The translations under genes were made by a program, and so were the position numbers. From contig NC_087250.1 of NCBI RefSeq assembly GCF_037042905.1, forward strand, positions 11,906,001 to 11,970,000: a stretch of DNA of 64,000 nt. The letters run 5' to 3'. Under the pieces are notes generated by a model. The model ran no database searches, was not told where the DNA came from, and was given only the letters and a program-made list of their open reading frames with translations. Shown here in pieces: positions 12,323 to 54,812 of the stretch (within the stretch, counting starts at the first letter, position 1; each line of letters starts with the position of its first letter). The DNA is from Lytechinus pictus (lineage: Eukaryota).

Positions 12323-12891
12323 AGGGAAATCCAACCCAAATAAAGCTTGTTTTTATAAGGAAAAGGAAAATCAGACAAGTTGATAGGTGAAAGTTTGAAC
12401 AATATTGGACAAATAACAAGAAAGTTCTGAATTTTTAAAAGTTGTAAATATTGGTAATCACTATACCCATGGAGACTTCAAATTGGCCGCACATGGGATG
12501 TCATCGTGATGTAAGACAAGGACTACTCCTCCATGTACGCCAATACATATTATGGCTAAAATGTCATTTTCCCCAAAAGTTTTATTTCAAATTATATTTT
12601 TATTTCATGAGGACATAAAAAACTGGATTGTATTTAGATTACTGCCCCCAGGGGAATGGGTACTTAGGAGAAAACCACAAATCCCTGATAATAAAGTACA
12701 TGGCCTATGGGAAAGTTGTTCTTGCCCCTTGTTGCCAATTTGAAATCTACATAGTATTAGTGATCTCAATTTTAAAGCAGCTATAACTTCCTTATTGCTT
12801 GTTCGATTTTTTTTTCAAACGTTTACCATTCTGTTTAATTTATATTTCTCCTTCCCAACACAACATTTTATGGCCAAGGCTGGATTCCCCT
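12323..12891. mobile_element. Kolobok/T2-like MITE
   Basis: TTAA|AGGGAAATCCA ... TGGATTCCCCT|TTAA, with long imperfect TIRs. Confidence 0.75.
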
Positions 12892-17696: not shown

Positions 17697-20600
17697 AGGC
17701 GGATCCACTAGGGCCCCCCCCCCCCCTATTGGCGGAGCAAAAAAAAGGAAAAAAAGGGAAAGAAAGAAAAAAAAGGAAAAAAAGGTAAGAGAGAGGAGAA
17801 AAAAGAGGGGGAAACATAAGAGGAAGAAGACGAGTGAATAAAATAAGATGGGGGGGAAGACTTGGAAAATGATTAAGAAAATCTTTCATGTCACTAAAAT
17901 TTTCGCCCGCGCTTCGCGCTCGCACTGGCTTTTAGGTGATTTACATATCTTGTTCAATATGAAGTTTAAATATCAAGTTTGGAAGTCAATATACAAACAT
18001 ATTTCATCTCAGAAATCGAACTTTCATTATTTTGTGTGACTTTCAAATTGATTTTTAAAAAGGGCTCTGTAAAAAAAAATCAGTTTTATGGTCTGAATAT
18101 TAAAATTTTCTGCTCGCGCTGCGCGCTCGCAAATTTTGATTTATCAGGTACCTATTATTTTCTTGTATTCCAAAAAGTTTTTAAAATATTCCTTTTCAGG
18201 TCTGATTGTCAAAACGTATCAGCTAGCGCTGCACGCTCGCATTTTGATTGGCGAGTTATGTATGTCTCAATATTGATTATACAACAAACTACTTAAAATC
18301 CCCTTTTCATGACAGTGTATAAAATATTTAGGCTCGCAATTTGCGCTCGCATTAATGGTTAATAATATATTAACTGATGCATCCTAGTTATAATTACAAA
18401 AGTGCTTGAAATGTCAAGTTTTCAGGCCATCATATCATCAGATTTCGCGCCCTCATTAGGTATTAATGAATAAGATATTCATTTAATAATTGATCTTTTT
18501 TTTTTCATCTTGCGCTTAACAAGAGGAATAGGAAGACAGTCTTCATTTTCATATTATGTCCTAAGGATGTGCCGGTACGTCCTATGTCAAAACTCAAAGT
18601 AATAATAATGAAAATATGAGCTCTTAATTAAGTGCGATCCATATCCACCTCACAATTTTCCTACAAAATTAAGTGCTTGAAATATAGAGCTGAAATTGAC
18701 TCTTTTTTAGATCGGATTATCAAATAGTTTAAGCTCGCGCTCGCTTGATTTTCACGATAAAAGATGTATAGAATGGCTATATTCTATATAGGTCTAAATA
18801 TGACACACGCGCGCGCATGTTTATTCGATACTCAACTTGTTCTCTATTCAAATCATTATCCAGTTTCAGATCACAATATCAAATTTTCTGCTCGCGCTTT
18901 GTGCTCGCATTATTAATGTAGAAAGATCCCCTATTACTCATTCTTTTTATGATATACAAAACATGAATAGAGTGTCCCGTTTTTAGGTCTAAATTTCGAA
19001 AAAAAAATCGCTCGCGCTTCACGCTCGCATCAATTGTTCAGTTATAAAGCTATCTTGTTTACGATTATAAAATTTGATAAAAAAATTATATTCATTATGT
19101 CGAAATAACAATTTTTTCAGCTCGCGCTTCGCGCTCGCATTATTTGATTGCTGAAATATGTAACGTCTTCATGGCTAAGTGGCAGTCCTTAACAGGTACC
19201 TTTTCGATCAGTTCAAAACGCATATGGACATTTTCTGCTCGCGCTTTGCGCTCGCATTATTAATGTAAAGAAGATCCCCAATTACTCATCCTTTTAATGA
19301 TTCACAAAGTATGAATAGAGTGTCTCGTTCAAGTAGGTCTAAATCTCGAAATTTTCCGCTCGCGCTTCGCGCTCGCATCAATCTTTACTATTATGACAAA
19401 AATGTACCTTTGACAAAAATCAAACCTGGTAAAAATAAGAATAAACAACCATGGATCACCCAAGGTATAATTCAATCAATATTCACCCGTAATCGATTAT
19501 ATAAGATATCGCTTAAATCACCAACTCTAGGACATTTAAATAAATACAAGAAATACCGTAATAAATTAACCTCAATAATTCGATTGGCTCGAAGATCGAA
19601 CTTTTCTAATAAAATTGAAATAAATAAGGATAATAACAAAACATTGTGGCATACAGTAAATGAAATGTTAAATAAAAATACGCGTGATTTTAACAATGTT
19701 GAGTTCCTTTTAAACGGGCATAAAACGCAAGACCCTTCAGAAATTGCTAAAGCATTTAATTCTTTTTTTACCAATGTTGGTCCTAATCTTGCATCTAAAA
19801 TTGCAACTAATGCCAATGATTTTTCTACATATTTAGGTAATCATGCCGAACATTCTTTATTTTTTATCCCTACCAATACTCATGAAATCATAGAAATTGT
19901 TCGGTCTTTTAAATCTACTCAATCCAGTGGCCATGACGGTATCAGTGTATGTTTACTTAAAGAAATAATTCATTATTTAGCTTCTCCGCTTTCATATATT
20001 TTCAATTTATCTCTCTCAAATGGAATTTTTCCGGATCAACTAAAAATTGAAAAAATAATTCCTATTTACAAAAAAGAAGACCCTTGCCAAATATCTAACT
20101 ACCGTCCCATTTCATTATTACCCAGTATATCCAAAATACTTGAAAAAATTGTTTACAAACGATTGTACTCTTTTCTGGATACAAATAAATTATTAATCTC
20201 AAATCAATATGGCTTTAGGAAAAATCATTCAACTGACTATGCAATTTTACAATTACATGATCAAATAATAGATTCACTTTCTAAAAATGAACACACCGTT
20301 GGGGTCTTTATGGATCTATCGAAGGCATTCGATACTATGGATCACCATATTCTTTTGTGTAAATTAAAGACTTACGGAATCAGAGGTATTGTTTTATCAT
20401 GGTTTAATGATTATTTATCCAACAGACGTCAGTATGTTAATTTTCATTATAAATCATCCCAAGTTTGTACCGTTAAGTGTGGGGTACCACAGGGCTCCAT
20501 CCTAGGCCCTTTGTTATTTTTAATTTATATGAATGATATAATTAATGCATCACCTCTACTTACCTATGTTCTCTTTGCAGATGACACTAATGTATTTTAT

Positions 20601-22095
20601 TCTCACAAAAACTTAGACATACTTGAAACAATACTTAATCACGAATTAGATAAATTTTCTATGTGGTTTAAATCAAACAAACTCTCCTTAAACATTAACA
20701 AAACAAATTTCATATACTTTAAACACCTTAATTCTAAACATACATTTCGTGGTTCCATTCAAATTAATAACATCAGTCTCATTGAAAAACAAGAGACTAA
20801 ATTTTTAGGGGTAATAATCGATTCTAATTTAACTTGGAACAGCCACATTCATAATGTTAGCACACTAGTTGCCAGAGGTATTGGTATATTATATAAACTC
20901 AAATATTGTCTTTCCCAAAGATCACTATTTATGTTGTACAATTCTTTTATTTTATCACATATTTCATATTGCAATATATTGTGGGGTAATAGCAATAAAA
21001 CAAAAATAGATTCAATTCTGCGCCTTCAAAAAAAGGCACTCCGTATTTGCACCCATTCGCAATATTTAGCTCACTCTGATCCCATTTTTCGGAAACTCAA
21101 AACGTTGAAAATAAACGATATCCATACTTTACAATCTGCCATTTTTATGTACAAATTCTCAACCAATGCTATACCTACATCCTTTCAAAACATGTTTACC
21201 TACAATAGCGACATTCATTCATATCCTACACGTCACTCATCAGACTTTCATTTGACAAACCCGAAAATAATTTTAGCACAGAAAACAATTAGACACCACG
21301 GCCCAGATATATGAAACAACATACCAAATCATATTAAACTCACTGCATCTGTCTTTTCTTTTAAAGCTTCATTGAAAAAATATATTTTATCCAGATATTC
21401 ATAAATCTCTCACCTGCACTTGCACCCACTAGCACTCACTAGCACACACTTCATTTGTCAATTTCTACTTTTTTCCCCGTTATTTGATGATTCGTGACAT
21501 TAATTTTTTTTTCTTACAGACACAATTAATTTCTTAGGTTTCCATGTAGCCCTTCCCTTTTTTGGCTGCTATGCTTCAAGCATATATTTGCTTATATAGT
21601 TTGCCTCTGCATTTTACTTATTATATATATTTTTTATATATTGTATTTATGTCTTTCTCCAGTCACTACATATAAGATTGTCACTTGGTTATGTACTTTA
21701 TGCTATATTATGATTATGTCTCAAGCATTGTAAATTTGTTTTGTATATATTCCAATAAATGCAGAAAATCCTGCAAAAAAAAATTGTTTAGTTATATACA
21801 TATTTTGTTTAAGTTACAAAAAGTGCTTAGAATTTCCATTCTTTTGATAAAAATGTCATAAATTTCATCTCTCGCTTCGCGCTGGCATTATTTGATTTTG
21901 TAAATATTTATAACGTCTTCATGGCTAACAGCATGCAGTCTTTAACAGGTACATTTTCCATCAGTTCATTTTCTGCTCGCGCTTCGTGTTCGTAGTAATT
22001 ATTTAGTTGCATACACATCTTTATCAGGATAACAAACATTGCCCAGAATGTTCAAATTTAAGGAAAAAATACATAAGATTTCCAAAAAATTTGAT
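17697..22095. mobile_element. Non-autonomous DNA element with CTCGCGCTTCGCGCTCGC sub-repeats (copy 2, interrupted by a LINE)
   Basis: Begins TAGGCGGATCCA; collinear with 90-1974; the repeat unit GCATCA|ATTGTTTAGTTATA is split by the LINE. Confidence 0.7.
19383..21782 (+). mobile_element. 5'-truncated CR1/L2-group (Crack-like) LINE, RT region
   Basis: PWIT, NYRPISLL, QYGFR, DLSKAFD, GVPQGSILGP, FADD, KFLGV motifs; no endonuclease. TGA at 21312 replaces the conserved Trp (GPDI*NNIP) and the frame continues to about 21404. AATAAA near 21754 and an A-tail. Confidence 0.9.
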
Positions 22096-28815: not shown

Positions 28816-29695
28816 CCAGTTTGGAATCAAACCGATGCTGTTTTAATACTAATTGGTGTTGTTTAAACACATATCTGGTGTTGGACCAAACGAAACTGGT
28901 GTTGTTTAACACGTCTCTGGTGTGGACATATATAGATTCTGGGCTGGTGTTAAAACAATACCAGAGTGTTTGCAGTGCAGGTGCGCACCTCCCAGACACA
29001 ACCAAATATTATTCACTCCACAGTTTTTGCTTTTTCACAATAGACATTTATTGCAACTAAACGGGGACGGATTCAAGAAAACTGTTAAAGGGGAATAAAA
29101 CCTTTGGAACAAGTAGGCTTGTGTTGAAACAGAAAAATCAAAAAATAAGATAAAAGAAAGTTTGAGAAAATCGGACAAATAATGAGAAAGTTACGAGCAT
29201 TTGAATATAATTGCAATGGAGATCCTCCCATTGGCAATGCGACAAGGATGTGTGATGTCACATGTGAACAACTTTCCCTTTGATGGACTATAAAATACCC
29301 TCAAAATGTATCTTTTTTGCTTTTTCTTATGGTGATACAAACTCTTTATCCATGATGTATTCTTTAAAAATCTGTATTACATGCCCTCCTATAGAAAGAA
29401 CACATGATCTACTGATAGATGTGATATTAGAGGCAATTAAGTGAAATATATACTAAAGTAATGGGGAGAGTTGTTCACAAGTGACATCACACATATTTGT
29501 CGCATTGCCAATGGTAGGATCTCCATAGCATTAGTGATTACAATAGTAGTTAATGGATAGACCTCATACCAATTTTGGTGACCTTTGACCTTTGACCCAT
29601 GACCTTTGACCCCAACTTCCGGTCACTGTTGACCCCGTGACCCCACCTTCCGGTCAATCATGACCTTTGACCTTTGGGTACGCGGTAAACAGGAA

Positions 29696-30080
29696 ATTGG
29701 ATAATGGAGCGCGGGAAGCGATTTTAATTGGATAATGGAGCGCGGGACGCGAATTTAATTGGATAATGGAGCGCGGGACGCGATTTTAATTGGATAATGA
29801 AGCGCGGGACGCGATTTTAATTGGATAATGACTCCGCGTGGGGACGCCATCTTAATTGGATAATGACTCCGCGTGGGGACGCCATCTTAATTGGATAATG
29901 ACTCCGCGTGGGGACGCCATCTTAATTGGATAATGAAACGCGGGACGCGATTTTAATTGGATAATGACTCCGCGTGGGGACGCCACGCTTCAACCCGGAA
30001 ATGATGGGGGTGAATCTTAAAGAAAGAGTAAAAAGCAGCGCGTGCTATAAAACCCGCCAACTTGGACACCCGGCGCATTC
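29696..30080 (+). promoter_or_regulatory. Predicted promoter in Polinton left arm: 9x ATTGG repeat array, TATA box, Inr (mirrored at about 31770-32155 on minus)
   Basis: Nine ATTGGATAATG copies spaced 31 or 35 bp, with GCGCGGGA motifs; TATAAAA at 30046-30052; GCATTC about 30 bp downstream. Confidence 0.55.
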
Positions 30081-30138
30081 TGGACCTCGGACTAACCAGA
30101 ACAGCTCTGCCGCAGGAACACCAATTTATCTACATGCC

Positions 30139-30282
30139 ATGTTGATAACCGTGTGGATGTTGTTTGCGCTTTGGAGAGAGCCGTACATAGGTTTTGAATT
30201 TTGGAGGAACTGGGAGAAAGTGTGGGAAGCGTATGAAGAGGAAAGGAAGAAAGGTATTTGCCGGTCCAAAGGTGAATCATGA
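30139..30282 (+). CDS. Putative 47-aa Trp-rich Polinton microprotein (mirror copy 31567-31710, minus)
   Basis: First long ATG-ORF after the TATA/Inr: MLITVWMLFALWREPYIGFEFWRNWEKVWEAYEEERKKGICRSKGES; no homology recognised. Confidence 0.3.
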   Translation: MLITVWMLFALWREPYIGFEFWRNWEKVWEAYEEERKKGICRSKGES

Positions 30283-30500
30283 GTCAAACGCAGTGGAGCA
30301 TCGAGGACGAAGCCATGCTTCGTCTCCTTCTGGAGCGAAGGAGGAGAGCAACGGAGCGGCAAAGGCAGGCCAGAGCAGAGGTGGTGGAGAGGATGCGGGA
30401 AGAGAACATCGAGGATGAAGAACGGGACGCGAGGTCTGATATGGACGCGATGGAGGGTCATTCCAACGTGGATGAACATATTTTCCTTGAGATTATATGA
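30279..30500 (+). CDS. Putative 73-aa charged helical Polinton protein
   Basis: ATCATGA start overlaps the upstream stop (ATGA); Arg/Glu-rich, purine-rich; stop lies just before the 10-bp array. Confidence 0.45.
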   Translation: MSQTQWSIEDEAMLRLLLERRRRATERQRQARAEVVERMREENIEDEERDARSDMDAMEGHSNVDEHIFLEII

Positions 30501-30511
30501 AAGCATTGATT

Positions 30512-30888
30512 AATCCGTAAACATCCGTAAGAATCCGTAAGAATCCGTAAACATCCGTAAGAATCCGTAAAAAATCCGTAAGAATCCGTAAAAAATCCGT
30601 AAGAATCCGTAAACATCCGTAAGAATCCGTAAAAAATCCGTAAGAATGAGTAAGAATGAGTAAACATCCGTAAGAATCCGTAAGAATGAGTAAGAATCCG
30701 TAAGAATGAGTAAACATCCGTAAGAATGAGTAAGAATCCGTAAGAATCCGTAAACATCCGTAAGAATCCGTAAACATCCGTAAGAATCCGTAAAAAATCC
30801 GTAAGAATGAGTAAGAATGAGTAAACATCCGTAAGAATCCGTAAGAATGAGTAAGAATCCGTAAGAATGCGTAAAAATCCGTAAGAAT
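30512..30888. repeat. 10-bp tandem array (GAATCCGTAA / ACATCCGTAA / GAATGAGTAA); shorter mirror at about 31149-31337
   Basis: Read directly; the mirror lacks 188 bp at the junction TCTTACG|ACGGAT near 31207. Confidence 0.95.
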
Positions 30889-30981
30889 CAAAGTACCTTC
30901 GCGCGCGTTTCATGATTACGTATAATTACAAGTTTGAACGTTAATTTTCTTCATTTCCCAACAAATAATCATCGAGTCAGC

Positions 30982-31068
30982 ATGAATATATTGGATATGT
31001 CCAACCGTTACGCTTGTTCACGATGCGATAAAACTTTTAGTAGGAAATATAACATGCTGACTCGATGA
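30982..31068 (+). pseudogene. Truncated C2H2 zinc-finger ORF spanning the palindrome spacer
   Basis: MNILDMSNRYACSRCDKTFSRKYNMLTR*: Y-x-C-x2-C-x3-F-x5-M, cut before the His pair where the right arm starts. TATAATT at 30921 and TCATTT at 30951 lie upstream. Confidence 0.7.
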
Positions 31069-31348
31069 TTATTTGTTGGGAAATGAAGAAAATTAACGTT
31101 CAAACTTGTAATTATACGTAATCATGAAACGCGCGCGAAGGTACTTTGATTCTTACGGATTTTTACGCATTCTTACGGATTCTTACTCATTCTTACGGAT
31201 TCTTACGACGGATTTTTTACGGATTCTTACGGATGTTTACGGATTCTTACGGATTTTTTACGGATTCTTACGGATTTTTTACGGATTCTTACGGATGTTT
31301 ACGGATTCTTACGGATTCTTACGGATGTTTACGGATTAATCAATGCTT

Positions 31349-31570
31349 TCATATAATCTCAAGGAAAATATGTTCATCCACGTTGGAATGACCCTCCATC
31401 GCGTCCATATCAGACCTCGCGTCCCGTTCTTCATCCTCGATGTTCTCTTCCCGCATCCTCTCCACCACCTCTGCTCTGGCCTGCCTTTGCCGCTCCGTTG
31501 CTCTCCTCCTTCGCTCCAGAAGGAGACGAAGCATGGCTTCGTCCTCGATGCTCCACTGCGTTTGACTCAT
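31349..31570 (-). CDS. Mirror copy of the 73-aa ORF in the right arm
   Basis: Identical translation in the ORF track. Confidence 0.45.
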   Translation of the reverse strand: MSQTQWSIEDEAMLRLLLERRRRATERQRQARAEVVERMREENIEDEERDARSDMDAMEGHSNVDEHIFLEII

Positions 31571-33402
31571 GATTCACCTTTGGACCGGCAAATACCTTTC
31601 TTCCTTTCCTCTTCATACGCTTCCCACACTTTCTCCCAGTTCCTCCAAAATTCAAAACCTATGTACGGCTCTCTCCAAAGCGCAAACAACATCCACACGG
31701 TTATCAACATGGCATGTAGATAAATTGGTGTTCCTGCGGCAGAGCTGTTCTGGTTAGTCCGAGGTCCAGAATGCGCCGGGTGTCCAAGTTGGCGGGTTTT
31801 ATAGCACGCGCTGCTTTTTACTCTTTCTTTAAGATTCACCCCCATCATTTCCGGGTTGAAGCGTGGCGTCCCCACGCGGAGTCATTATCCAATTAAAATC
31901 GCGTCCCGCGTTTCATTATCCAATTAAGATGGCGTCCCCACGCGGAGTCATTATCCAATTAAGATGGCGTCCCCACGCGGAGTCATTATCCAATTAAGAT
32001 GGCGTCCCCACGCGGAGTCATTATCCAATTAAAATCGCGTCCCGCGCTTCATTATCCAATTAAAATCGCGTCCCGCGCTCCATTATCCAATTAAAATCGC
32101 GTCCCGCGCTCCATTATCCAATTAAAATCGCTTCCCGCGCTCCATTATCCAATTTCCTGTTTACCGCGTACCCAAAGGTCAAAGGTCATGATTGACCGGA
32201 AGGTGGGGTCACGGGGTCAACAGTGACCGGAAGTTGGGGTCAAAGGTCATGGGTCAAAGGTCAAAGGTCACCAAAATTGGTATGAGGTCTATCCATTAAC
32301 TACTTACAATATTCAAATGCTCATAACTTTCTCATTATTTGTCCGATTTTTCTCAAACTTTTGTTGATCTGTTTCTTCGATTTTTCTGTTTTCATACAAG
32401 CTATCTTGTGCCAAAGGTTTCATTCTCCTTTCATATATCACAAATGCCCTTCAAGCGACAATGAACAACTGGAAGGCCTTTGTCGAAAATTGCTGAACCA
32501 GAATGACAGTTCCTTACTATGTTTAGGAGCGGACGAAAAATTGCAAATACGTTTTTTGTCTACGGCGGTGGAGGACGAAACTTTGCATTTGCAATACTTT
32601 AACATCCCAGTTGCAGATGCAAAAAACACTCTCTATTGTGGAAAGAAAAAAGGAGTTGGAGTAAATAATATTTGATTGTGTCTGGGTCGGTGTGCGCGAG
32701 AGTGTGTTTGGGTGGGTTTGGTAAACGTTTGTGTCTTCTGAGCCGACTTAACCATCTACATGTCCACATATTTATCTTGATAGATTTAAACTTTAACATC
32801 TGTGTAAGTCTGACAAATACTAATGAATATTAAACACATGGCAAGGAAAACACCAAAATACAACTGTTACGTTTGTAGCATAAATATATGAAATAAACAA
32901 GTTACGTACGATTTGGGAGATGTGTGTTTAAAATCAAATAATAATCAGTCAATACTAAACAAGGCAAATACAGTTTTGAAAAAAATGTATTATCAATGTT
33001 TTTTTCCGATATCAGTTTGTTGGAATGTAACAACTATGTTATGTGTAGATTTTAATAACTTGTACGATGGGTTTATTCACATGAAAGAAACAAAGTGAAT
33101 AGCTATTAAGAATAAAAGACAGTAGTCGCAGCAAACAATTATTTCATGAGAAAGTCTTTTAAATCAAGGTTAATTGTCAAAATATTATCATACACCTATA
33201 TCTGGTACATTGATATAAACTCATCTTTGTAAAATCAAGAGCATAGGCTTTATTTTTAAATAAAGATAAAAGTCAAATGTGACCTCTGCTAACCTCGTTT
33301 TTAGAGGTCAATGACCTTAAGGTCAACGACCTTAAAATATCCGAAAATATATGTTTTTCATCATTAGTTCATAATAAATATGGTTATAATGAAAAAAATG
33401 AT

Positions 33403-36700: not shown

Positions 36701-39700
36701 TCATATATTGAAAATTAGCCTGAGATAGCACGGAAGAGCATCTAGGACCTTACAGTTTTCAGGGCCCTTAAGTGAGCCTATACATCCCGGCCGCAAGGGA
36801 CTTCGCGCAATTCAAGTTGGAGTCTCCAGTTTGCTTGGGGATCCAGGCGGGAGTATCTCCAGATCAGAAGGTGCTTGGGGTTGGAGTCTCGGTAAAGAAT
36901 TCAAAAGAATTGGCTCTCTCGGGGTAGTGTTCTTGCTCGAGTCCAGTGTTCGTCAAACCCAAAGACCAAGGTTAGCTTGTTTCATCCCCACAATCCTCAT
37001 GCTTGAATGAAACTCAAAACAACAACAATCTATGGTTGGAATTCCCTTCTAGCACTGCGACCATGCCAGTATCTTGGTGTCACATTTGATCAGTCACATT
37101 AAGAGTGAAGGGGGAAAGTGAGGATCCATAATAACCTTCTCCGGAACTCACAAACTAGGGCCATAAAATGTGAAGAGTCTTTATGCCGTGTCAAGTATTG
37201 CCAATCTGATATACGCAGATCAGTAGCTATACCACAGAGCTCTCAGCAAAGCGAAAATAGCAAGTTATACATGGAAGAGAGGAGGGCGCTCGTCATTATC
37301 AAGATATAGACACGTCTTCCCTGGAATTGGAGAATTTTATAGTTATTTTTTTGACTTTTGCAGACTGGTATAAGTCAAATTTTAAGACCGAAAATTTGAG
37401 AACATTAGAACAATAGCTTCGAATAGGACTAGTTAAAGGCAAATTGATAAAGAGGTGGAAAGAATATCATGTATGAAAGTGACGATTCAACCCGGCCTGT
37501 TGAGTATGGTGCTACGTCGGATGCCACGTATGCAGACGCAACCAAAACAATGGCACGTGATACGGATCGTACGGGCGTGGAGAACGGGGTCAAGCCTGTC
37601 TTCCTAAAGAACAGAGACGTGCCCGAAGGAAAGCCACTTCAGCATGAAGAAATATATATAGCCATACACAGACATCTTGGCTCAACAAAAAACCTGAAAG
37701 GGTTGCAGAAAATAGGAGGACTCTGGAGGATCTACTTTGTAGATAGAGTCGATAGGATTGCTCTGATATCTACAGGACTCAACGTAAGAGGAGTGTCTGC
37801 CCCCATCTACGACACAAACCCCTTCCAGAATCGCCATGACCCTACTACATCTTTGAAAGTCATCGTGAAGGATATCCCTTTGTCTGTGAAAGACGAAGTA
37901 ATTGCTAACGAAATCGAAAAAAAAGAAATGCAAAGTGCTAAGTAGAGTGCAAAGGATGAAATTAAGAGTAAATGGTCTTCTGACCGACTGCTACACAGGT
38001 GATCGAATGCTGTTCATCGCACCCTCCACAACGCCTCTGTCGCGAGCCATGAATATGGGTGGATTCAAAGCACGTATTTACCATGAAGGGCAGGACAAAC
38101 CCCCACCCTGTGTTCTAGGTGTCTATCACAGGGGCATCATGCTTCAAGATGTGTCAACGATGTTGTTTGCAGAAAGTGTTCCCAGCCTGGTCACAAGGCT
38201 ATGGATTGTGCCCATTACCCGAACAACGAATATACGGTTGCCCCTACTTCGAAACCATCGGGTCCTGTACAAAAGAAGATAGATACGCCTTCAGTGAGAA
38301 ATTCCAATGGAAATGAGCTAGAACGCGAGATTGAGATGAATCAGCGTGATCGTAAGGTACAGAGCAACAAAGCATCAAGTAGCAACGAGATACCTCGAGC
38401 CCAAGCAAATATCACTGTTACGTTTGCTGGTCCGGACAAGCTCTTACTATGACCTGTCCTGGACAAACTCCTACGTAAACCTCCTGAATCCTGTTCTCTA
38501 TTCAGACAATCATGAACTAGAAAACAAGCCACGCTGTGTCAAATCGTTTAAAACACAGTTTATTTACAAAATGTACACATGACGATTCAGATTCACAAGT
38601 CCGTTGTTCACATAGCGATATATCATTTTTCTAATCTTCTCTCCAGACCCAAAACGCCTATTATTATCTCGTCACACTCCCTTCCTTAAAAACATGCTTA
38701 TAATTTTTCAAAGAAATTGCAATAAGTATGTTCGCAACTCAAACTTTGCTTCTTAATATAAACGAACATTATCACAATGAATATAGCGCTTAACCAAACA
38801 CAGTTAATGCATTAAAACATATTGAAATGCCTTTTTTTCAATTTCACGCTCTTTGTGCAGCAATTTTGCATACTTTGGCAAAAGATAAGCATAATATAAA
38901 ACATAGTGTAATGAAATGAGTAAAACAGACATGTATTGATAGCGCATGCATGTAGTAAAACTTATTCATCAAAAGGTACACGCATGTTCTGAAATACATG
39001 TATGTTCATAATAAACATAGTCATAAGAAATTTCACATGAATAATCAACATAAAAATACATGATATTACTTCCAAGTGTGATGAGAAAAGCAATATAAAA
39101 AGCATTTCTTCACTGAGTCCAAAAGTCAATAATATGAGAAATCATTCAAGAAGTAAGTTCAAACTTCTGATTTCCAATATCTTCTTCCAATTATAGTTTC
39201 AGTTCAACGAAGTTCAACATCATCGCTTCAGTTAGGGTTCATTGAATGTTCATGAAGATTCACAGTAGGTTCAGATTACTTGATCCAAGATATAATGTAA
39301 ACATGAGCACAGTTGGCATCCATAAATCCAGGAAAAAAAACAAGTTCAGTTCACTTTCAAATCAAACATGGTAAAGAGTCCATTCCGGAGTATCCATTAA
39401 GTTGAGATGACAAGTAATCATTTAGGTATAAATTCACATGATGATATAAATTTCAAGTTCAACAGTTCACAGAAAGTGCAGTTTCCAAATTTCCCCTTGA
39501 TTATACACAATATCAAACATTCACAGTTCAAATGTCACGATGAATTAACACGCTGTCAAACGTTCACTGCTCAAACGTCACGATGACATAACACGATGTC
39601 AAACGTTCACTGTTTATCACATTGATGATATCAAACTTTCATTGTCCGAATTTCGCATTGATACACACGACGTTAAACTTCCATTGTCCAGACTTCAAAG

Positions 39701-39748
39701 TTCACACGAATTCGAAGTTATCAAATTGTTCAAAGTTAAGGATTCAGT

Positions 39749-42700
39749 TTACACTCGCGACAATGTGTCTGCAATAATGTTGTCTTTTCCCGGTAGATGT
39801 CTAATGTTCAAGTTGTACTCTTGGAGCAGTAGACTCCACCTTGTAAGTCTTTGATTTTTGTTTTTCATCTTACTTAGAAACGTCAAAGGATTATGATCTG
39901 TCCATATGTCCAATGCATGTTGAGATCCACTCACATACACTTCAAAGTGTTGCAGTGCAAAGATTAACGCCAAAGTTTCCTTCTCCACAGTGGAATAATT
40001 TCTCTGACTGCTCGAAAACTTCCTTGAGAAGAACGATATGGGCCTGTCTGTTCCCTGTTCATCTTTCTGCGTAAGAACAGCTCCGGCACCCACATCACTA
40101 GCGTCAACCATCAGAGAGAATGGCTGACTAAAATCTGGAGCCACCAGTACAGGATTGGTAGATAGGAGTGCTTTCACCTTGTCAAAAGCACTCTGACAGT
40201 CACTGGACCAGATGAACTTCACCTCCTTGCGTAGTAGATTGGTCAGCGGGGCGACGACATCAGAGAAGTTATGGCAGAATCGTCTGTAGTAGCCTGCCAT
40301 GCCAAGAAACCTCATCAGTCCCTTCCGGTTGGTTGGAGTCGGGAACGCCAGAATAGCTTCTACCTTCGCTGAGAGTGGTCGAACATGACCTGAACCAACA
40401 ACGTGACCCAAGAAACTAACAGTAGCACCTCCAAACTCACTCTTTGCCAAGTTGACTGTCAATTTGGCATCAGACAATCTCCTGAACAAATCTCTAATTC
40501 TTTGTACATGAACTTCCCAATCTTCACTATACACAATCAAGTCATCTATGTAAGCTTCACAGCCTTCAAGACGAGAGACAAGACTATTCACAAGTCTTTG
40601 GAATGTAGCCGGCGCGTTTTTCATACCGAATAGCATCACAGTGTACTGGAATAGGCCTTGGTGTGTAGCAAATGCAGAGATTTCTTGCGCTCTCTTAGTC
40701 AACGGAATCTGCCAATAGCCTTTAAGCAGATCAAATTTGCTCACATACTTCGCCTTTCCTATACGGTCAATACAGTCATCTACGCGCGGTATCGGGAAAG
40801 AATCGGTCTTTGTACTCGAATTGACTTTTCTGTAGTCAGTACAGAAACGATATGACTTATCCGGTTTCGGAACTAAGATGCATGGTGACGACCATGCGCT
40901 GCTACTTGGCTCGATGATGCCATTCTGCAGCATGTACTCTATTTCTTTTTCAAGATTCTTCTTCTTTACTGGGTTAACACGATAAGGCGCCTGCTTGATT
41001 GGGGCGGTATCTCCCACATCAACATCATGTTCAACAACATCAATACGAGATGGGATATCTGCAAATAACTGCGGATACTCATTCAACAGCTCTTTCACAT
41101 CCCTCCTCTCCTTCTCAGACAAGTGGGTTAGTTTGTCATTGATGTGTCTTAGAACTTCTGAATTTTTCAATTTCACACATGGTTCATCTCTCTCAATGTT
41201 ACACATCTCTTCACTTTCATCATTCAGCTCAGATTCTACAGCACTCAACACTGGTTGTGCTCTCTTTTCATCATCTCTTCGAACATAAGCTTTTATCATA
41301 TTCACATGACATACACGCTTTCTCTTTCTTCTATCTGGAGTTTTGACGACATAGTCAACATCACCAACTTTCTTCAGAATGGTATACGGTCCAGTAAATC
41401 TAGCCTGCAAAGCATTACCAACTACTGGTAACAAAACCAAAACCTCATCACCTGCCTTGAAATTCCTTTCCTTGGACTTCTTGTCATACCAAGACTTCAT
41501 TTTCTCCTGAGAATCAGACAAATTCTTCTTAGCAACTTCACAAGCACGATGCAATCTCTCACGGAAAGACGATACATAGTCCAACATATTCACATCTTCC
41601 TCATCTGACAACAACCTTTCACTCAACAACCTGAGGGGTCCACGAACTTCATGTCCATACACGAGCTGAAATGGGCTGAAACCAAGAGATTCTTGAACAG
41701 ATTCTCTCAAAGCAAATAGCAACAATGGAATTCCCTCATCCCATTGTTTCTCTGTCTCCAAACAATATGTTTTGAGCATGTTCTTGAGTGTCTTATGACA
41801 TCTCTCAAGTGCTCCTTGCGATTCAGGATGGTATGCACTAGAAACTACATGTTCAATCCCTAACTGCCTGAGCACTTGCTTAAAGACTTTCGACATAAAG
41901 TTTGATCCTTGATCAGACTGAACGGTACGCGGTAATCCTACAGTCGTGGAAAACTTGATCAGCGCCTTGCTCACATTGTTTGCGGTGATGCGTCTAAGTG
42001 GAATCGCTTCGACATACCTGTTACTTGCGCACATAATGGTAAACAGGAATTCATTACCTGCTTTTGTCCTCGGAAGCGGACCTACGCAATCTATGATAAT
42101 TCTTGCAAACGGTTCATCGAACGCTGGCACTGGTTTTAATGGCGCGACTGGTATTTTCTGATTCGGTTTACCAACTACCTGACATACATGACAATTTCTG
42201 CAATAGTTTGCAACATCCTTTTGTAAACCTGGCCAAAAGAAATGAGAAAGGATTTCCAAACTTCATCAGCAGGAACATCTATCGGCCTCCACTTTCTCAT
42301 CAAAACACCTGACTTCGTATAATAACAAACAGGCACGGTCAATGCCTCCTCCTCAGAGATCGCTCTCTCAAACATGGATACTAACTGAGGATCTTTTTGT
42401 TGCTCCTCCAACAACTTACTCTTACTTATCGGCATTGGTTCACATTTATTTTTCTCTTCTGTACGTTGAGTTTCTCCTGCACCCTCATTCACATTTGATT
42501 CACATTCATCATCAACCAAACGACAAAAGAAATAATCTCCCAAGTTAACCTCATCTAGCTCACTAGACTTCGATTCAGACTCTACTTTCTTTGCCATCGA
42601 ACGAGTTACAGCACAAGACGGAAACACAGTAGGAAATTCTGCAACCAACTGCTCTGTTTCACTACTCTCACACGGAATATCACACAACTGGACATGGCAC
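39749..42700 (-). pseudogene. pol: Pol: integrase, then RT, then RNase H; two lesions
   Basis: CRNCHVCQ, DCVGP, SDQGSNF, YHPESQGALER, GPY; FDLLKGYWQ, YIDD; DAS, EKE, TDH. Frameshift near 42685; the His-His half of the integrase HHCC motif is missing near 42255. Confidence 0.9.
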
Positions 42701-44194
42701 AACTTTATCACCAGCAAGATCATTCCCTAAAATGATGGAAACATCTGCCATCGGAAGTGATGGTCTCACAGCTATTTTCACACTGCCAGAAACAAGGTCT
42801 GATTTCAAGTCTACCACATGAAGGGGTGCTTTTACAAAGCCATCTCCTATTCCTTGGAGCAAAACACTAGTTCCAACACAAGATTTCTCACCAAAAGGCA
42901 ACACACTCTCCAAAATCAAAGACTGAGAAGAACCAGTATCACGCAACACTTTCACTTTTCTTGCTTCGACACTACCAGCTAGGGAAACATATCCTACAGA
43001 AACAAACGGTTCATATTGCTTTTTCACTTTCTCTAAGTTAACTGGCTCAATCCTACTCTCTGAACTTAGCAAATTATTCACAAATGCATTTGGATGTGCA
43101 TTACTTGATTCACTTGTTTCTCCTTTAAGTGTAGGACACTTTGCTTTAAAATGACCAACCTTGTGACATGCATAGCATTTCTTTTCTTGCTCGTCATCTT
43201 TAGATTGTGATTTTACTTCTTTCTTGTTGTGTGCTGAAGCACCATTTTTGTTTTTGTTTTTCCACTTTCCAGATTTGTTTGTCTCATCTGATTTTTTGTT
43301 TGTGATTTTGTGCGTTAGCGCATAATCATCTGCAAGCTTCGCTGCTTCATTAAGCGTTCCTATTTGCTGCTCTTCAAGATGCAACCTAGCATCGAAATGC
43401 ACACTACGCTTAAACTCTTCGAGAAGAATTATTTCTCTAAGCTTATCAAAGCTATCTGCATGGAGTGACGAACTCCATCTATCAAACAACTGTTGTTTGC
43501 GCCTAGCAAACTCAAGATGAGTTTCGGTCTCATCTTTGCGCGTTTTCCGAAATTGTTGACGATACGCATCCGGTACAAGCTCATAAGCACGCAACACTGC
43601 TGCTTTAACAACGTCATAACGACCCGCATCATCAACTGACAAAGCTGAATAAGCATCTCGAGCTTTACCCTTCAACTGAGATCGTAACAAGTGTGACCAT
43701 TTTTCTTGCGGCCAACTCAAACTAACAGCTACCTTTTCAAAGTGAAGGAAATATTTCTCTATCTCCTCCCCCTCCTGAAAAACGGGAACCATTCGAACAT
43801 GTTTCGCAACATCAAAATCAGACTTTACTTGCCTAATTTCTTCTCGTTCTCTAGCATTCTCATGCCCCCTTCTCAAAACTACTTGTTCTCGTTCAAGTTC
43901 AACTTTCGCTATCTCTAGTTCCAACTCTTTCAAACGCAATTTCTCTGTCAAGTCCACATTCACAGACTCAATCTGAACCTTAGATAAAGCTTCAAGTGGC
44001 AGAACATCTTCCTCTTCCACTAACCACTGAATTACAGCTTTCAGAATTTCTAATTTACGCCAAGTATTCCTTACCTCAGCAACCTGGTAATGATGAGCAA
44101 TCTCCAAGAGATGAACCTTCTTCAGAACCAGCAACTTCTCAACACTGGGAGAATCAACGAAATCATCCAAAGAAAATTCCGCCATGGTCAACAA
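42680..44194 (-). CDS. gag: Gag (capsid/SCAN-like, CCHC knuckle) fused to aspartic protease
   Basis: YFLHFEKVA..W..W; LEEFK...AAKLADDY; CYACHKVGHFKAKC; LRDTGSSQS; ILGND. Ends at a frameshift. Confidence 0.88.
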   Translation of the reverse strand: MLTMAEFSLDDFVDSPSVEKLLVLKKVHLLEIAHHYQVAEVRNTWRKLEILKAVIQWLVEEEDVLPLEALSKVQIESVNVDLTEKLRLKELELEIAKVELEREQVVLRRGHENAREREEIRQVKSDFDVAKHVRMVPVFQEGEEIEKYFLHFEKVAVSLSWPQEKWSHLLRSQLKGKARDAYSALSVDDAGRYDVVKAAVLRAYELVPDAYRQQFRKTRKDETETHLEFARRKQQLFDRWSSSLHADSFDKLREIILLEEFKRSVHFDARLHLEEQQIGTLNEAAKLADDYALTHKITNKKSDETNKSGKWKNKNKNGASAHNKKEVKSQSKDDEQEKKCYACHKVGHFKAKCPTLKGETSESSNAHPNAFVNNLLSSESRIEPVNLEKVKKQYEPFVSVGYVSLAGSVEARKVKVLRDTGSSQSLILESVLPFGEKSCVGTSVLLQGIGDGFVKAPLHVVDLKSDLVSGSVKIAVRPSLPMADVSIILGNDLAGDKVVPCPVV

Positions 44195-45414
44195 AAGACC
44201 CCTAATCTTTAACGCTGAAAAGACTAGAAACAGCTAAAGAAAACCTTTAATTCTTAGCCAAGACAATAACCAATATGGTTATCACAGTTGAAAATTATAT
44301 CAATAACATAAGAAAATGTCAACCTGACCTGGCTGACCCTGTATATATGACCTCAACCTACAGAAACGGTAACCTGACTCGGTCACCCCAGTTGAAAATT
44401 TTTCCAACCACACTGTCAACTTGACTCCAGTCGACACTGTCAGTTCCCATCAACCGACACAGCAACAACAAAAAAATGGTTAACCAGTTGAAATATCATC
44501 AACCCAAATTTCATTCAACACTACGTGAACTAAACACATCGCACAGCAAGACACACTGAAATACATGGAATTGCCTCATGGGACAAACAGCACGCCATAC
44601 TCTACCGTGTGCGCCACCACACAGCGTCATACACAACACACTGACAGCGATATCCACACACTGGCATTACATCTACGTGTACACACACCCATGCAAATGT
44701 CTAATGACAATCCTCACGTTGAATACGATTGCACAATACATGTACGTTCATGCGACTTTGCCGCGCCGGCATTATACGGTATACGGAACTTCGATACAAC
44801 TTACGCCGAGAGTTCTGGTTCGACTCTCACCAAGCCCCCACTGTTACGCGGGGGAATTGACTCCGGACATGCCCCCACTGTTACGTTTGCTGGTCCGGAC
44901 AAGCTCTTCCTATGACCTGTCTTGGACAAACTCCTACGTAAACCTCCTGAATCCTGTTTTCCATTCAGACAATCATGAACTAGAAAACAAGCCACGCTGT
45001 GTCAAATCGTTTAAAACACAGTTTATTTACAAAATGTACACATGACGATTCAGATTCACAAGTCCGTTGTTCACATAGCGATATATCCTTTTTCTAATCT
45101 TCTCTCCAGACCCAAAACACATATTATTATCTCGTCACATCACTCAATTCATCTCAGCAGAAAAGGTGCGTGAACATGATTCACAAGGAGATTCAGAGAG
45201 TGACGAAGAGTTTGAAGATGCTGATACGCGTGAAGATGAGGAGCAAGAGTACTCCGATATGTCAGCAGATTCCCCCAAACTACCGAAGGATGGGAAAAAG
45301 TTCGCCAAGGGTAAGCGGAAACAAAAAATCAGGAGCAAACCAGCCAAAAAGAAATAGGAAGCTGCTTCCGATTTCTGACAATAACAGAGTGTAAATAGTG
45401 TAAATAAATCACCT

Positions 45415-48400
45415 ATGCCAGGAATAAAAAACAAATACTGCAACTTGATTAGTTTGAATGTTAGAGGTATCAGAAGTAAAGAAAAAAGAGACACAATCCT
45501 GTTATGGAGCAAGCATCAGAAAACAGACATATTGTTATTACAAGAAACTTATTGGACAGATAATATTTTGAAAATCATTCGAAATGAATGGAAAGGGCAA
45601 GTTTTTTGTTCAAATGGATCTAATCATGCCAGAGGAGTCGCCATTCTTATTTCAAAAGATTTACCAATAACTTTCAATAACATAATTTATGGTCAAGAAG
45701 GACGGATGATTATGTTAAATAGTATGATTAGTAATTGTAATCTATGTATAGTAAATATTTATGCACCCACAGAAAAGAAATACAGAGAACGATTCTTCAA
45801 AAAGCTTTATAGGTGGATCGAGTCGAACAGACCTCTAGATAGCGAGTTAGTAATAGGTGGAGACTTTCATTCCATCCTCTCCCCAACTAAAGACGTAAAA
45901 AGAAATCCGAATACTTATTATAAGACACCACACAATCTTAAAGCTATTATCAAACATTTTGATTTATGTGATATATGGAGACGTTTTAATCCAAACAAAC
46001 GACAGTTTACTTGGAGAAATGTATCTTTAGATTTGGCATCACGCCTTGATTATTGGCTGGTAAATAAGAATCTGAAAGCAAAAATAATGATGTGTGATAT
46101 ACGTCCATCTGTACGTTGTGACCACAACGCTATTTTTTTAAGGTGTTGATAGGTAAAGTGGAGAAAGGTCCAGGATTCTGGAAATTAAATACGCATATTC
46201 TGAAAGATGATGTGTATAAAAGTAAAGTAAGAAAAATTATTAGAAACATTGAAAATATGAATCTTAGTTTCTCTGAAAGATGGGAACTTACAAAGATTAG
46301 ATGTCGTGAATTTACACAAACATACTGTATTGGAAAGAAGCATAAATCAAAAGAATCAAAGACAAGCTTAGAAGAAAGATTTGCTAAGATAACTAGGAAA
46401 ATTGATGAACAAGGTAACATTGATGATGTGACTAGAAAAGAGTACCTCTGTATTAAAAGTGATTTAGATAGACTGTATAAAAGATATTGTAAAGCAGCAA
46501 GTATACGAGCTAGAATCAAATGGCTAGAAAAGGGCGAAAAAAATACAAAATATTTTCTGAGTCTAGAAAAGAAAAACGCCCAGAAAAGAAATATAACTAA
46601 AATACGAAAAGATAATAAGATTATTACGAAACGAGTACAGATTCTAAATGAGGTTGTTTCTTTTTACAAAGAACTATACGCCAGTAAACATATACGAAAA
46701 GAAGATATTGAAAGATATTTTGTAGGTTCCGTTGTAAATAAGTTATATGAAACAGACAAAGAAAAATGTGAAGGACTGTTAACATATTCAGAATGTCGAA
46801 TTGATGCTTTTAAGATGAGCAAAAACAAAAGTCCGGGAGCAGACGGTTTACCCGTCGAATTCTTTTTCGAGTTTTGGGACGATATTTAATTTATGTTGGT
46901 CAATGCTCTAAATGAAAATTGTAGTAATAAGGTTATGTCAAAAACCCAACGGTTAGGAATTATTACGTTGATTCACAAAAAAGGACAGATTGAAGATTTG
47001 AATAACTGGAGGCCAATAACCTTGTTAAATTACGACTACAAAATAATGGCGGCTGCCTTATCAAACAGGTTACATAAAGTGTTATCAAAACTTGTTCATG
47101 AAAATCAGGTAGGTTACATAAAAAACAGAATGAGTGGTTTTAATATTAGACTTACGCAAGATGTTTTTGATTATATGAAAAAGTACAATTTAGAAGGTGC
47201 CTTAATGTTAGTTGACTTTCGGAAGGCATTCGACTCCGTGGAATTTGATTTTATTGAAAGCTGTTTGAGTCATTTTAATTTCGGCGAAGACTTCCGATGT
47301 TGGGTTAAATTAATGTATGAAAAAGTGGAGAGTTCGATACTAATCAATGGTTGGAGAACGCAAACATTTCAGATCTGTAGATAGAGGCATAAGACAAGGC
47401 TGCCCCCTATCGGCAATGTTGTTTATCTTGGTGGTAGAAACCCTAGCAGAAAGAATCAGAAGAAATGACAAAATTAAAGGAATTCTATTTGGACACAACA
47501 AAAGAACAGAATTAAAAATCTTACAATATGCAGACGATACATCTGTGTTTTTGAGAGAGAAATCGTCTATGCAATATATTATGGAAGAATTAGATAAATT
47601 TGGACATGTGGCCGGGCCGGTTGTTAATAAAGACAAAACAATGCTGAAATGGTTAGGCTCTACGGAAACTTATTGGAATTTTGATAAATATGGTTTGAAG
47701 TGGACGAAAGGTTGTATTAAATATTTAGGAGTTCATATAGACCATGACCTAGATAAGGTTGTGAAATTGAACTGGGAAACCAAATTACAAAAGATACAGA
47801 GAATCCTGGACAATTGGAGGAAAAGAGATCTCACAATTATAGGAAGAGTCCTTATCATCAAGACTCTACTTGTAAGTCAAATAATTCATTTAATTATGTT
47901 TTGTCCAGTTCCTCACCAGATAGTAAAGAAACTGGAGAATATAATTTACCATTTTTTATGGAACGCGAAAGTTGACAAAGTTAAGAGAATGACAATTGTA
48001 AAGGAATATGAGGATGGTGGTATTAGAATGATCGACATTCAGAAATTAATACAGAGTTTCAGATTGAAATGGTTGGCGAGAATAGTTGACGATACAAGTG
48101 GTTATTGGACAGATTTTGCTTTATTGAATTTGGAATCAGTAGGGGGTGTCAGACTAGTTCTTAACCGTACTATGGATAATCACAGATAGAAAAATGGTTT
48201 GTTAACAAATTGCCAAAATTTTATGTTGAGATTATAAAATCATGGTCACACTTGAAAGAATCCACAAAAAAGATGATTTGTTATCGAACACACAGATTCT
48301 ATGGTATAATAAATATATTGTATATCATAATCAACCATTTTTCTATAGAGATTGGTACGCTAGCAAAATAATTTTTCTGAAAGATATTTGTATCGAAGGA

Positions 48401-49196
48401 AAATTTGTATCTCTTACGAAACTGAAAGAATATTTTGAATCCGAGAAAACAAAAGCAAGAGCCCTGTTTGATTATTCTAAACTACAAAGGGCGATACCGA
48501 AAAATATGGTTGAATGATTTAACAGATGGTATTACGTTGGACATTCCAAAAATACCACTGAAGGGAAAAGACAAACAACTTAGGTTCTGTTCCAGCAAGC
48601 TATTTTACCACATTTTATTAACACATGACAAAACAAACGACGCTCCTACATATTGGGCTGACTTTGCCGATAGTCCTATAAATTGGAAGAATGTCTTTCA
48701 GAGAAATTTGAAAAATATAGGGGAAAACAAATTGAAACAATTCAATTTAAAATTGTTGTATAACTTAATTCCTACGAAGAGGATGTTGTTTTTATGGCAA
48801 TTGGACAATGATGATAAATGTGAAGTTTGTAATATCAAAGAAGATTTAATTCATGCTTTTTTGTATTGTAGTTTGAATATGCATTTCTTTTATAATTTAT
48901 TCATAATGATCAAAAATGTGTATGATGTAGACCTTTGTTTTCATGTCGATATTTTGTTGAAAAATTACAAAGAAAAGAAGATTGATGATATTATAACAAT
49001 AGCACTTTGGAGTATTTATAAGATGTTAATTTTTAGAAACTTACATAGAAAAGAAGAAAGAGAAAATAAATTATGGTTTACTTTTGTCAGAGAATTGAAA
49101 TTAAGATTAGATATCAATAAGATCATGAAGATTCTGAGGAAAAGAAGAAAGAAAGAAATGTATAATTTGCCTGTTGCTTTGGAAATGTATCTATGA
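45415..49196 (+). pseudogene. L1/Tx1 ORF2 (APE endonuclease, RT, C-terminal zinc motif), disrupted
   Basis: SLNVRG, LQET, NIYAP, GGDF, SRLDY, DH; KSPGADG, WRPITLLN, DFRKAFD, RQGCPLS, YADD, KYLG; CEVC..EDLIHAFLYC. Several frameshifts plus an in-frame stop at 46887. Confidence 0.92.
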
Positions 49197-54356: not shown

Positions 54357-54812
54357 GCCGTTTTAGCATTTAGTCCTATTTCTTGGTATCAAGAATTCAT
54401 TTCTTGATATCAAGAAATGAATTCTTGATATCAAGAAATAGAATTCTTTATATCAAGAATTGAATTCTTGATATTAAGAATTATATTTCTTGATATCAAG
54501 AATTACCATTGCTTAACTACACAAAACCATTTCTTGATATCAAGAATTCGATTTCTTGATATCAAGAATTCATTTCTTGATATCAAGAAATGAGTTCTTC
54601 ATATCAAGAAATGAATTCTTGATATCAAGAAATTATGAAATATTTGATGCCGTAACTGTCAACAAATATCAGTTGTTAACAGATGTTCAGGAGAACTCAA
54701 TTCTTGATATCAAGAAATGGTTTTGTGTAGTTAAGCAATGGTAATTCTTGATATCAAGAATTCGAATTCTTGATATCAAGAAATAGGAATAAATGCTAAA
54801 ACGGCTTGCCAT
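54357..54812. mobile_element. MITE built from TTCTTGATATCAAGAA palindromes
   Basis: TIRs GCCGTTTTAGCATTTA / TAAATGCTAAAACGGC; many copies of the 16-bp palindrome. Confidence 0.8.

Follow-up and report, generated by a model that had tools for sequence, protein, structure and literature searches.

Mavericks (or Polintons) have ends of the form 5'-(AGT)2//(ACT)2-3' and duplicate 6 bp of target sequence, and their terminal inverted repeats (TIRs) in vertebrates range from 46 to 1,447 bp with a mean of 402 bp (PMC8097293). They are thought to use a protein-primed polymerase and to replicate as free linear DNA molecules, a route that rests on inference, and virions are described as unseen (PMC8097293). 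The Polinton polymerase pPolB has the domain order TP-vOTU-EXO-PALM, with a catalytic Cys and His in the vOTU, which has the terminal protein domain on one side and the exonuclease domain on the other (PMC11161782). Palindromes made from a single end are known from other systems. Asymmetric snap-back genomes of AAV are self-complementary for one end, carry a promoter and a partial gene, and close in a single-stranded loop (PMC8235507). In the inverted amplification of yeast known as ODIRA, template-switch junctions form at inverted repeats of about 5 nt that lie 40-80 nt apart (PMC10766186, PMC4689423). Mariner MITEs with one end replaced are non-autonomous and have very long inverted arms that include a gene fragment, and their origin is called elusive or attributed to a deletion between adjacent copies (PMC4161770, PMC4678618). 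The word "microhomology" is absent from the main texts of these two papers. Direct-repeat microhomologies have been described at mariner deletions (PMC5490172), with a geometry that differs from the inverted match reported here. The accessible literature on palindromic or non-autonomous Polintons, including the consulted parts of PMC3014272, PMC6431247, PMC8097293 and PMC5499653, describes no such element; most subscription papers and Repbase lie outside this scope, and Repbase may list non-autonomous urchin Polintons.

We describe a palindromic element of 2760 bp (29545-32304) with Maverick ends in the sea urchin Lytechinus pictus. Positions refer to the window, the whole 64-kb stretch of DNA that was analysed. 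The left arm (29545-30984, plus strand, 1440 nt) begins with AGTAGT at 29545. The right arm (31053-32304, minus strand, 1252 nt) ends with ACTACT at 32299-32304 and, by arm alignment, is the reverse complement of the left arm minus 188 nt of a tandem array. Apart from this loss in the right-arm 10-bp array, the only exception to complementarity is a single substitution (29753). Comparison of both flanks revealed a 6-bp target site duplication, TACAAT, at 29539-29544 on the left and 32305-32310 on the right. The element thus shares its ends and 6-bp duplication with Mavericks/Polintons (PMC8097293, PMC11161782). It also shares an inward gene beside the end, whose full-length relative has a putative OTU-like domain where pPolB has its vOTU. 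It differs in size (2.76 kb versus 12.7-24.6 kb), in having no intact core gene and in using one end twice. Autonomous Mavericks of 12-25 kb have intact genes for pPolB, integrase, ATPase, protease and capsid; here the longest open reading frame (ORF) has 151 codons and lies within an array, and the pPolB-like content is limited to 61 codons. With no core gene intact, the element is non-autonomous, and its ends and target duplication identify it as a Maverick derivative. What is new is a Maverick derivative made of one end, probably folded back, whose junction is mapped against uncut copies; the underlying mechanism is already known from yeast, AAV and mariner. No second copy was found within the 64-kb window.

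Both flanks of the element belong to one older inverted-repeat element, in which they are consecutive. On the left, 29464-29530 pairs with 29278-29212, and the right flank (32309-32431) pairs with 29208-29087. The right flank does not mirror the left. Each flank is single and continuous, with no inverted triplication. Because the flanks follow one another in a single older element, they point to an insertion and not to a mirrored read. The older element (29087-29530 and 32309-32431) has arms that are 85-91% alike and received the insertion within its right arm. Related pieces lie near 3369-3451 and 12361-12446.

Each arm carries several repeat blocks. Subterminal tandem repeats with units of 7, 31 and 35 bp occupy 29579-29985 (plus strand), with a mirror at about 31864-32270, and are probably the true terminal repeat region. 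Runs of TGACCT(T) occur near both element ends (29579-29611 and 32237-32270), and we take these to resemble nuclear-receptor half-sites. A putative TATA-like TATAAAA, spotted by eye, stands upstream of the inward genes at 30046-30052 (plus strand). A bacterial promoter scan gave no signal, under a bacterial model that is inapplicable to this host. Further inward, a 10-bp tandem array runs through 37.4 units on the plus strand (30512-30889). Its mirror on the minus strand (31148-31337) is shortened to 18.4 units with an out-of-register joint. The 188-nt loss at this joint (31198-31215) amounts to an in-register loss plus a 3-nt duplication. End joining fits it better than slippage, and a polishing error could also have produced it. 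The remaining ORFs across arms and arrays were considered as genes and rejected as mirror or repeat frames.

Both arms contain the start of a pPolB-like gene that is broken at the same point. A small ORF of 47 codons (30139-30282, plus strand), whose first 33 codons match the proteins P0016, P0028 and P0030 at 55%, has a stop codon overlapping the ATG of the next gene. From there, 61 codons resemble a pPolB-like gene (30279-30461, plus strand); similarity extends as far as 30461, and the stop of the ORF follows at 30500. The mirror copy at 31388-31570 (minus strand) breaks identically. The 73-codon ORF at 30279 shares 60 of its first 61 residues with P0025, an L. pictus protein of 701 residues, and does not match it thereafter. 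Past codon 61, P0013 continues as P0025 does. For the 73-residue arm ORF, a word-sharing search gave no relative of similar length, and an exhaustive one gave four relatives. Splicing was considered as the reason for the different continuation of P0025 and was rejected on indirect grounds, as P0016, P0028 and P0030, which come from assembled contigs, share the later motif.

The identity of the longer gene was approached through structure. Residues 244-371 of P0025 give an OTU-like model (best Z 6.3, rmsd 3.5, 84 aligned residues) with a pLDDT of 49. In a structure search of this stretch against 48,161 chains, the best 30 matches were OTU-type or related papain-like deubiquitinases. Foldseek against the PDB returned no match with E < 0.001 for the domain, though OTU entries head its list. 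The best viral match is an adintovirus protein (E 2.6e-3); sequence searches with P0025 gave no Pfam hit and no PHROG or PDB match of note. The whole-length model reaches a pLDDT of 39, at which a structure search is meaningless, and no palm domain appears in the 701-residue model. What we take to be exonuclease motifs occur at 616 and 694. Overall, P0025 resembles the first half of a pPolB of the Polinton type, an assignment with moderate support given its low-confidence model.

The broken gene bears on how long the terminal repeat of an autonomous parent could have been. The preliminary description had offered, as an alternative to snap-back, a microhomology deletion ending where a long TIR on the right begins, in which an autonomous Maverick with terminal repeats of about 1.44 kb reaching the finger ATG lost its interior. 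Length would allow this, with vertebrate Maverick TIRs extending to 1,447 bp (PMC8097293). Yet the polymerase-like gene is broken at codon 61 in both arms and continuous in P0025 and P0013. As the gene of the parent runs on past codon 61, the arm would not be the terminal repeat of an autonomous parent. Whatever the gene is, such a repeat presumably cannot include 30462-30984, judging from the sequence of the arms. If the pPolB reading is right, the upper bound of the parental TIR is about 917 bp. The same break in both arms also indicates that the arms were doubled after the break. In addition, no second continuation at the finger ATG was seen in four sequencing runs. One contig, from run X3, passes 30984 unbranched and no loose end occurs at the ATG, which is weak evidence as contigs drop rare variants. 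We consider such a deletion extremely improbable.

At the inner end of the left arm, the palindrome enters a C2H2 zinc-finger gene. The last codon of the arm, ATG at 30982-30984, starts an ORF of 28 codons (30982-31068, plus strand) with the translation MNILDMSNRYACSRCDKTFSRKYNMLTR and then a stop; it is gene-derived to 31057 and arm-derived beyond. It matches positions 1-16 of 23 in PF00096 (E 8.7e-4; 20.1 bits, below the curated cut-off of 25.2), in line with the earlier proposal that the left arm ends at the start of a truncated finger. Base pairing ends immediately on entering an unpaired loop of 68 nt (30985-31052, plus strand), which reads inward from the terminus and contains an additional 6-bp inverted match (30987-30992 with 31046-31051). 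From 31053 the sequence turns into the reverse complement of its own start region, as had been noticed from the letters. The ORF in the window consequently retains the two Cys of the C-x2-C motif and lacks the two His ligands.

Relatives of the ORF show what was cut. Among 30 collected proteins, 18 align to the loop ORF, and in all 18 the alignment ends at 31056. A complete finger with both His follows in every one, so that the loop ORF represents a cut finger gene. The His residues are spaced by four in 17 of the 18 relatives and by five, under a greedy pattern, in the remaining one; the H-x3-H expected of the parent was wrong. With the in-frame window stretch as protein query, four of five candidates were confirmed, all L. 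pictus gene models that start with the finger (88-92% identity). The part behind the finger confirmed all nine of its candidates and defines a family of about 200-250 residues with a finger, an acidic tract and a helical domain. Five members of 225 residues occur at six L. pictus accessions. The Atlas returned only generic C2H2 clusters and had no match to the domain at the C-terminus of this protein family. Judging from its place in the arm, the finger gene would adjoin Maverick core genes. Three L. pictus models (P0001, XP_054767540.1; P0002, XP_054761126.1; P0004, XP_054765308.1) open with the finger and acidic tract of the element and continue into host-like sequence (kinase-like, coiled-coil and sialyltransferase-like). 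They are either annotation chimeras or transcripts begun in the element.

Sequencing records provide uncut copies of the same region. Four of 21 listed runs, none known to derive from the source animal, were compared with 30889-31072 of the window. Run X1 yielded six contigs, X3 one contig, X6 none and the RNA run X19 five reads. Two of the seven contig records, from two of the four runs, reach 31057. Both diverge there from the window, and their onward letters are near-identical to each other. The X3 contig agrees with the window over all 169 nt of 30889-31057 and then departs from it; the X1 record reaching 31057 has four differences over 124 nt. On inspection by eye, the divergent letters hold two His codons, four residues apart, in the reading frame of the ORF. 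Together with the 18 complete relatives, the X3 contig bears out the expectation that a parent gene completes the finger beside the same arm. Four of the six X1 records show 2 to 5 letter differences from the window in this region, and X1 possibly represents another species or population. The five X19 reads were drawn from about 6 in 100 of the run; they can derive from any intact copy and are uninformative on the palindrome. In these RNA reads, A>G differences occur at 30918 (3/3), 30931 (4/4) and 30943 (4/4), which could reflect a divergent copy or A-to-I editing.

The fold junction itself is crossed by no read or contig in the four runs. A fold-back chimera at the microhomology, created during assembly or library preparation, would account for this. 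Palindromes are hard to sequence. Such an artefact would not be expected to carry a 6-bp duplication at both ends or flanks that are consecutive in one older inverted-repeat element, nor arms distinguished by a substitution and the loss of 188 nt. The missing records also come from runs of which none is known to be the source animal. We therefore regard an artefact as very unlikely.

The junction coincides with a short inverted repeat. The left half, GCATG (30980-30984, plus strand), includes the finger ATG, and the right half, CATGC (31053-31057, plus strand), forms the fold-back junction. Native CATG or CATGCTG had been proposed at the breakpoint. A core of 4-5 nt holds in the uncut copies and the 7-mer does not: five letters are exact (31053-31057), the next differs and two more agree (7/8). 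The element is one rearranged end, doubled, that turns at a short inverted repeat already present in uncut copies. Of 83,901 random fold junctions, drawn from pairs spaced by 20-199 nt in the non-repetitive sequence of the arm, 0.35% had an inverted match that was exact over at least 5 nt. The predicted DNA fold of 30960-31057, computed from window letters up to 31057 only, has a lowest energy of -8.5 kcal/mol and pairs 30980-30984 exactly with 31053-31057, next to an adjacent inner stem. A 3' end at 31057 pairs with a probability of 0.57, a value equalled or exceeded by 44 of the 1358 possible 3' ends of a strand that starts at the terminus. Three of the 169 ends after the array, 31057 itself counted, pair as well or better; this rank depends on the 5-nt match and is not independent evidence. 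With 14 stems of 5 bp or more in 30889-31057, such fold sites are common.

The origin of the element was probably a fold-back or template switch at this short inverted repeat, which doubled one rearranged end. The evidence in favour consists of the uncut continuation at 31057, the 5-nt match and a fold that closes exactly there. A further argument is the divergence between arms of 1 in 1252 nt, against 2 to 5 differences in four of six X1 records. The inward reading of the loop, the broken pPolB-like gene common to both arms and the agreement with the junction geometry described in yeast (PMC10766186) also speak for it. Against a fold-back stand the junction missing from every record of the four runs, the lack of a full-length parent, the frequency of comparable stems nearby, the single copy and a pPolB call that has no Pfam support and a model pLDDT of 49. 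Exact DNA patterns from loop and terminus matched no locus in either viral or metagenome contigs. Protein-based locus searches confirmed 0/108, 0/6, 0/600 and 0/1 candidate stretches in viral contigs and 0/595 candidates in metagenome contigs, and thus no full-length parent was found in either.

The same letters could have been left by erosion. A longer palindrome, or two head-to-head copies, might have undergone a later central deletion at a 5-nt direct repeat that left a 68-nt loop. In a longer palindrome the junction letters constitute a direct microhomology, so a deletion explains them equally well and yields an identical sequence. Palindromes are described as eroding by end joining with a longer spacer left behind (PMC10766186), and mariner elements in which one end took the place of the other have been proposed to stem from a deletion between neighbouring copies (PMC4678618). 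The out-of-register 188-nt loss in the right array attests to at least one past rearrangement of the palindrome, and a longer palindrome would collapse into a single contig such as that of X3. Erosion nevertheless requires an extra, unseen intermediate, and the junction ranks in the top three of the 169 fold-back ends after the array. Separate copies should also exceed one difference in 1252 nt if the variation in X1, which may be another species or population, applies. We rate erosion as a serious though less probable origin than a fold-back.

Under the favoured fold-back, the element could have arisen in three steps. An earlier rearrangement, suggested by the mirrored break at 30461, would have fused the terminus and 61 polymerase-like codons with the 10-bp array and the finger gene. 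Synthesis of a strand running inward from the terminus would then have halted after 25 codons of the finger gene. The 3' end of this strand might have annealed 68 nt back to the 5-nt inverted match, either within the strand or on the displaced strand of identical sequence, and synthesis would have returned to the terminus to give a hairpin with two identical ends. The junction of this second step is directly visible, and its mechanism is deduced. Two intact ends would finally have allowed copying and insertion by an intact family member, as the end motifs and the 6-bp duplication suggest. The snap-back priming at a microhomology put forward in the preliminary description gains from the uncut gene beside the arm, the inverted match at the breakpoint and the rarity of such matches at random junctions. 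It is not singled out by them, as a switch at a host fork or the central deletion of a longer palindrome would give the sequence of a copy-back.

Comparison with known systems helps to place the fold-back. As in asymmetric AAV snap-back genomes, a single end is present in self-complementary form with a loop, and head-to-head genes could yield double-stranded RNA (PMC8235507). AAV is single-stranded and primed by a hairpin, and its forms were seen in particles (PMC8235507). The urchin element in contrast is a double-stranded, presumably protein-primed element fixed in a chromosome and known from sequence alone. ODIRA likewise keeps a pre-existing inverted repeat at the junction, here 5 nt long, 68 nt apart and present in uncut copies. 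ODIRA generates inverted triplications of chromosome segments around an origin, whereas here a mobile element is closed by two termini and its flanks are single and continuous. Mariner MITEs likewise derive very long inverted arms, gene fragment included, from a single parental end, and differ in moving by cut-and-paste without a polymerase of their own.

Within the favoured fold-back, a free protein-primed copy before insertion takes somewhat over half of the weight, and a host-fork switch on an inserted copy takes the rest. The sequence of one copy does not separate the polymerase of the element from a host fork. Free protein-primed copying is expected to leave a trace of this kind, a one-end palindrome whose turning point can be compared with an uncut copy. 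In its fullest form, the scenario is of a fossil copy-back defective Maverick genome, generated on a free germ-line copy by the protein-primed, strand-displacing polymerase of the element itself and then inserted by its integrase, with hairpin RNA as a possible product. We put this forward tentatively and think it rather doubtful as a whole.

A fold-back would account for the birth, in one step, of a helper-dependent element with both ends perfect. This raises the class-wide question of whether the junctions of palindromic Maverick derivatives lie at short inverted repeats. If the copy-back reading is true, palindromic Maverick derivatives would form a general class of defective interfering genomes. 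Inward head-to-head promoters might then direct hairpin RNA at the genes for the polymerase and the finger protein in the intact family, in parallel to a proposal for AAV 5' snap-back genomes (PMC8235507).

The window contains further repeats and mobile elements. An LTR retrotransposon on the minus strand (38413-45139), Gypsy-like by eye, has gag/pol-like ORFs that occupy separate frames, and its 264-nt repeats are 97% alike. Broken-up endonuclease and reverse-transcriptase ORFs at 45415-49196 resemble a LINE by eye, and 19311-21314 is a 667-codon ORF with PF00078 (E 7.8e-40). Two inverted arrays with a 16-bp unit (7681-8149 and 9739-10296) lie about 1.6 kb apart in a foldback-like arrangement. 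An array of 21-22-bp units at 54377-54782 is based on the palindrome TTCTTGATATCAAGAA.
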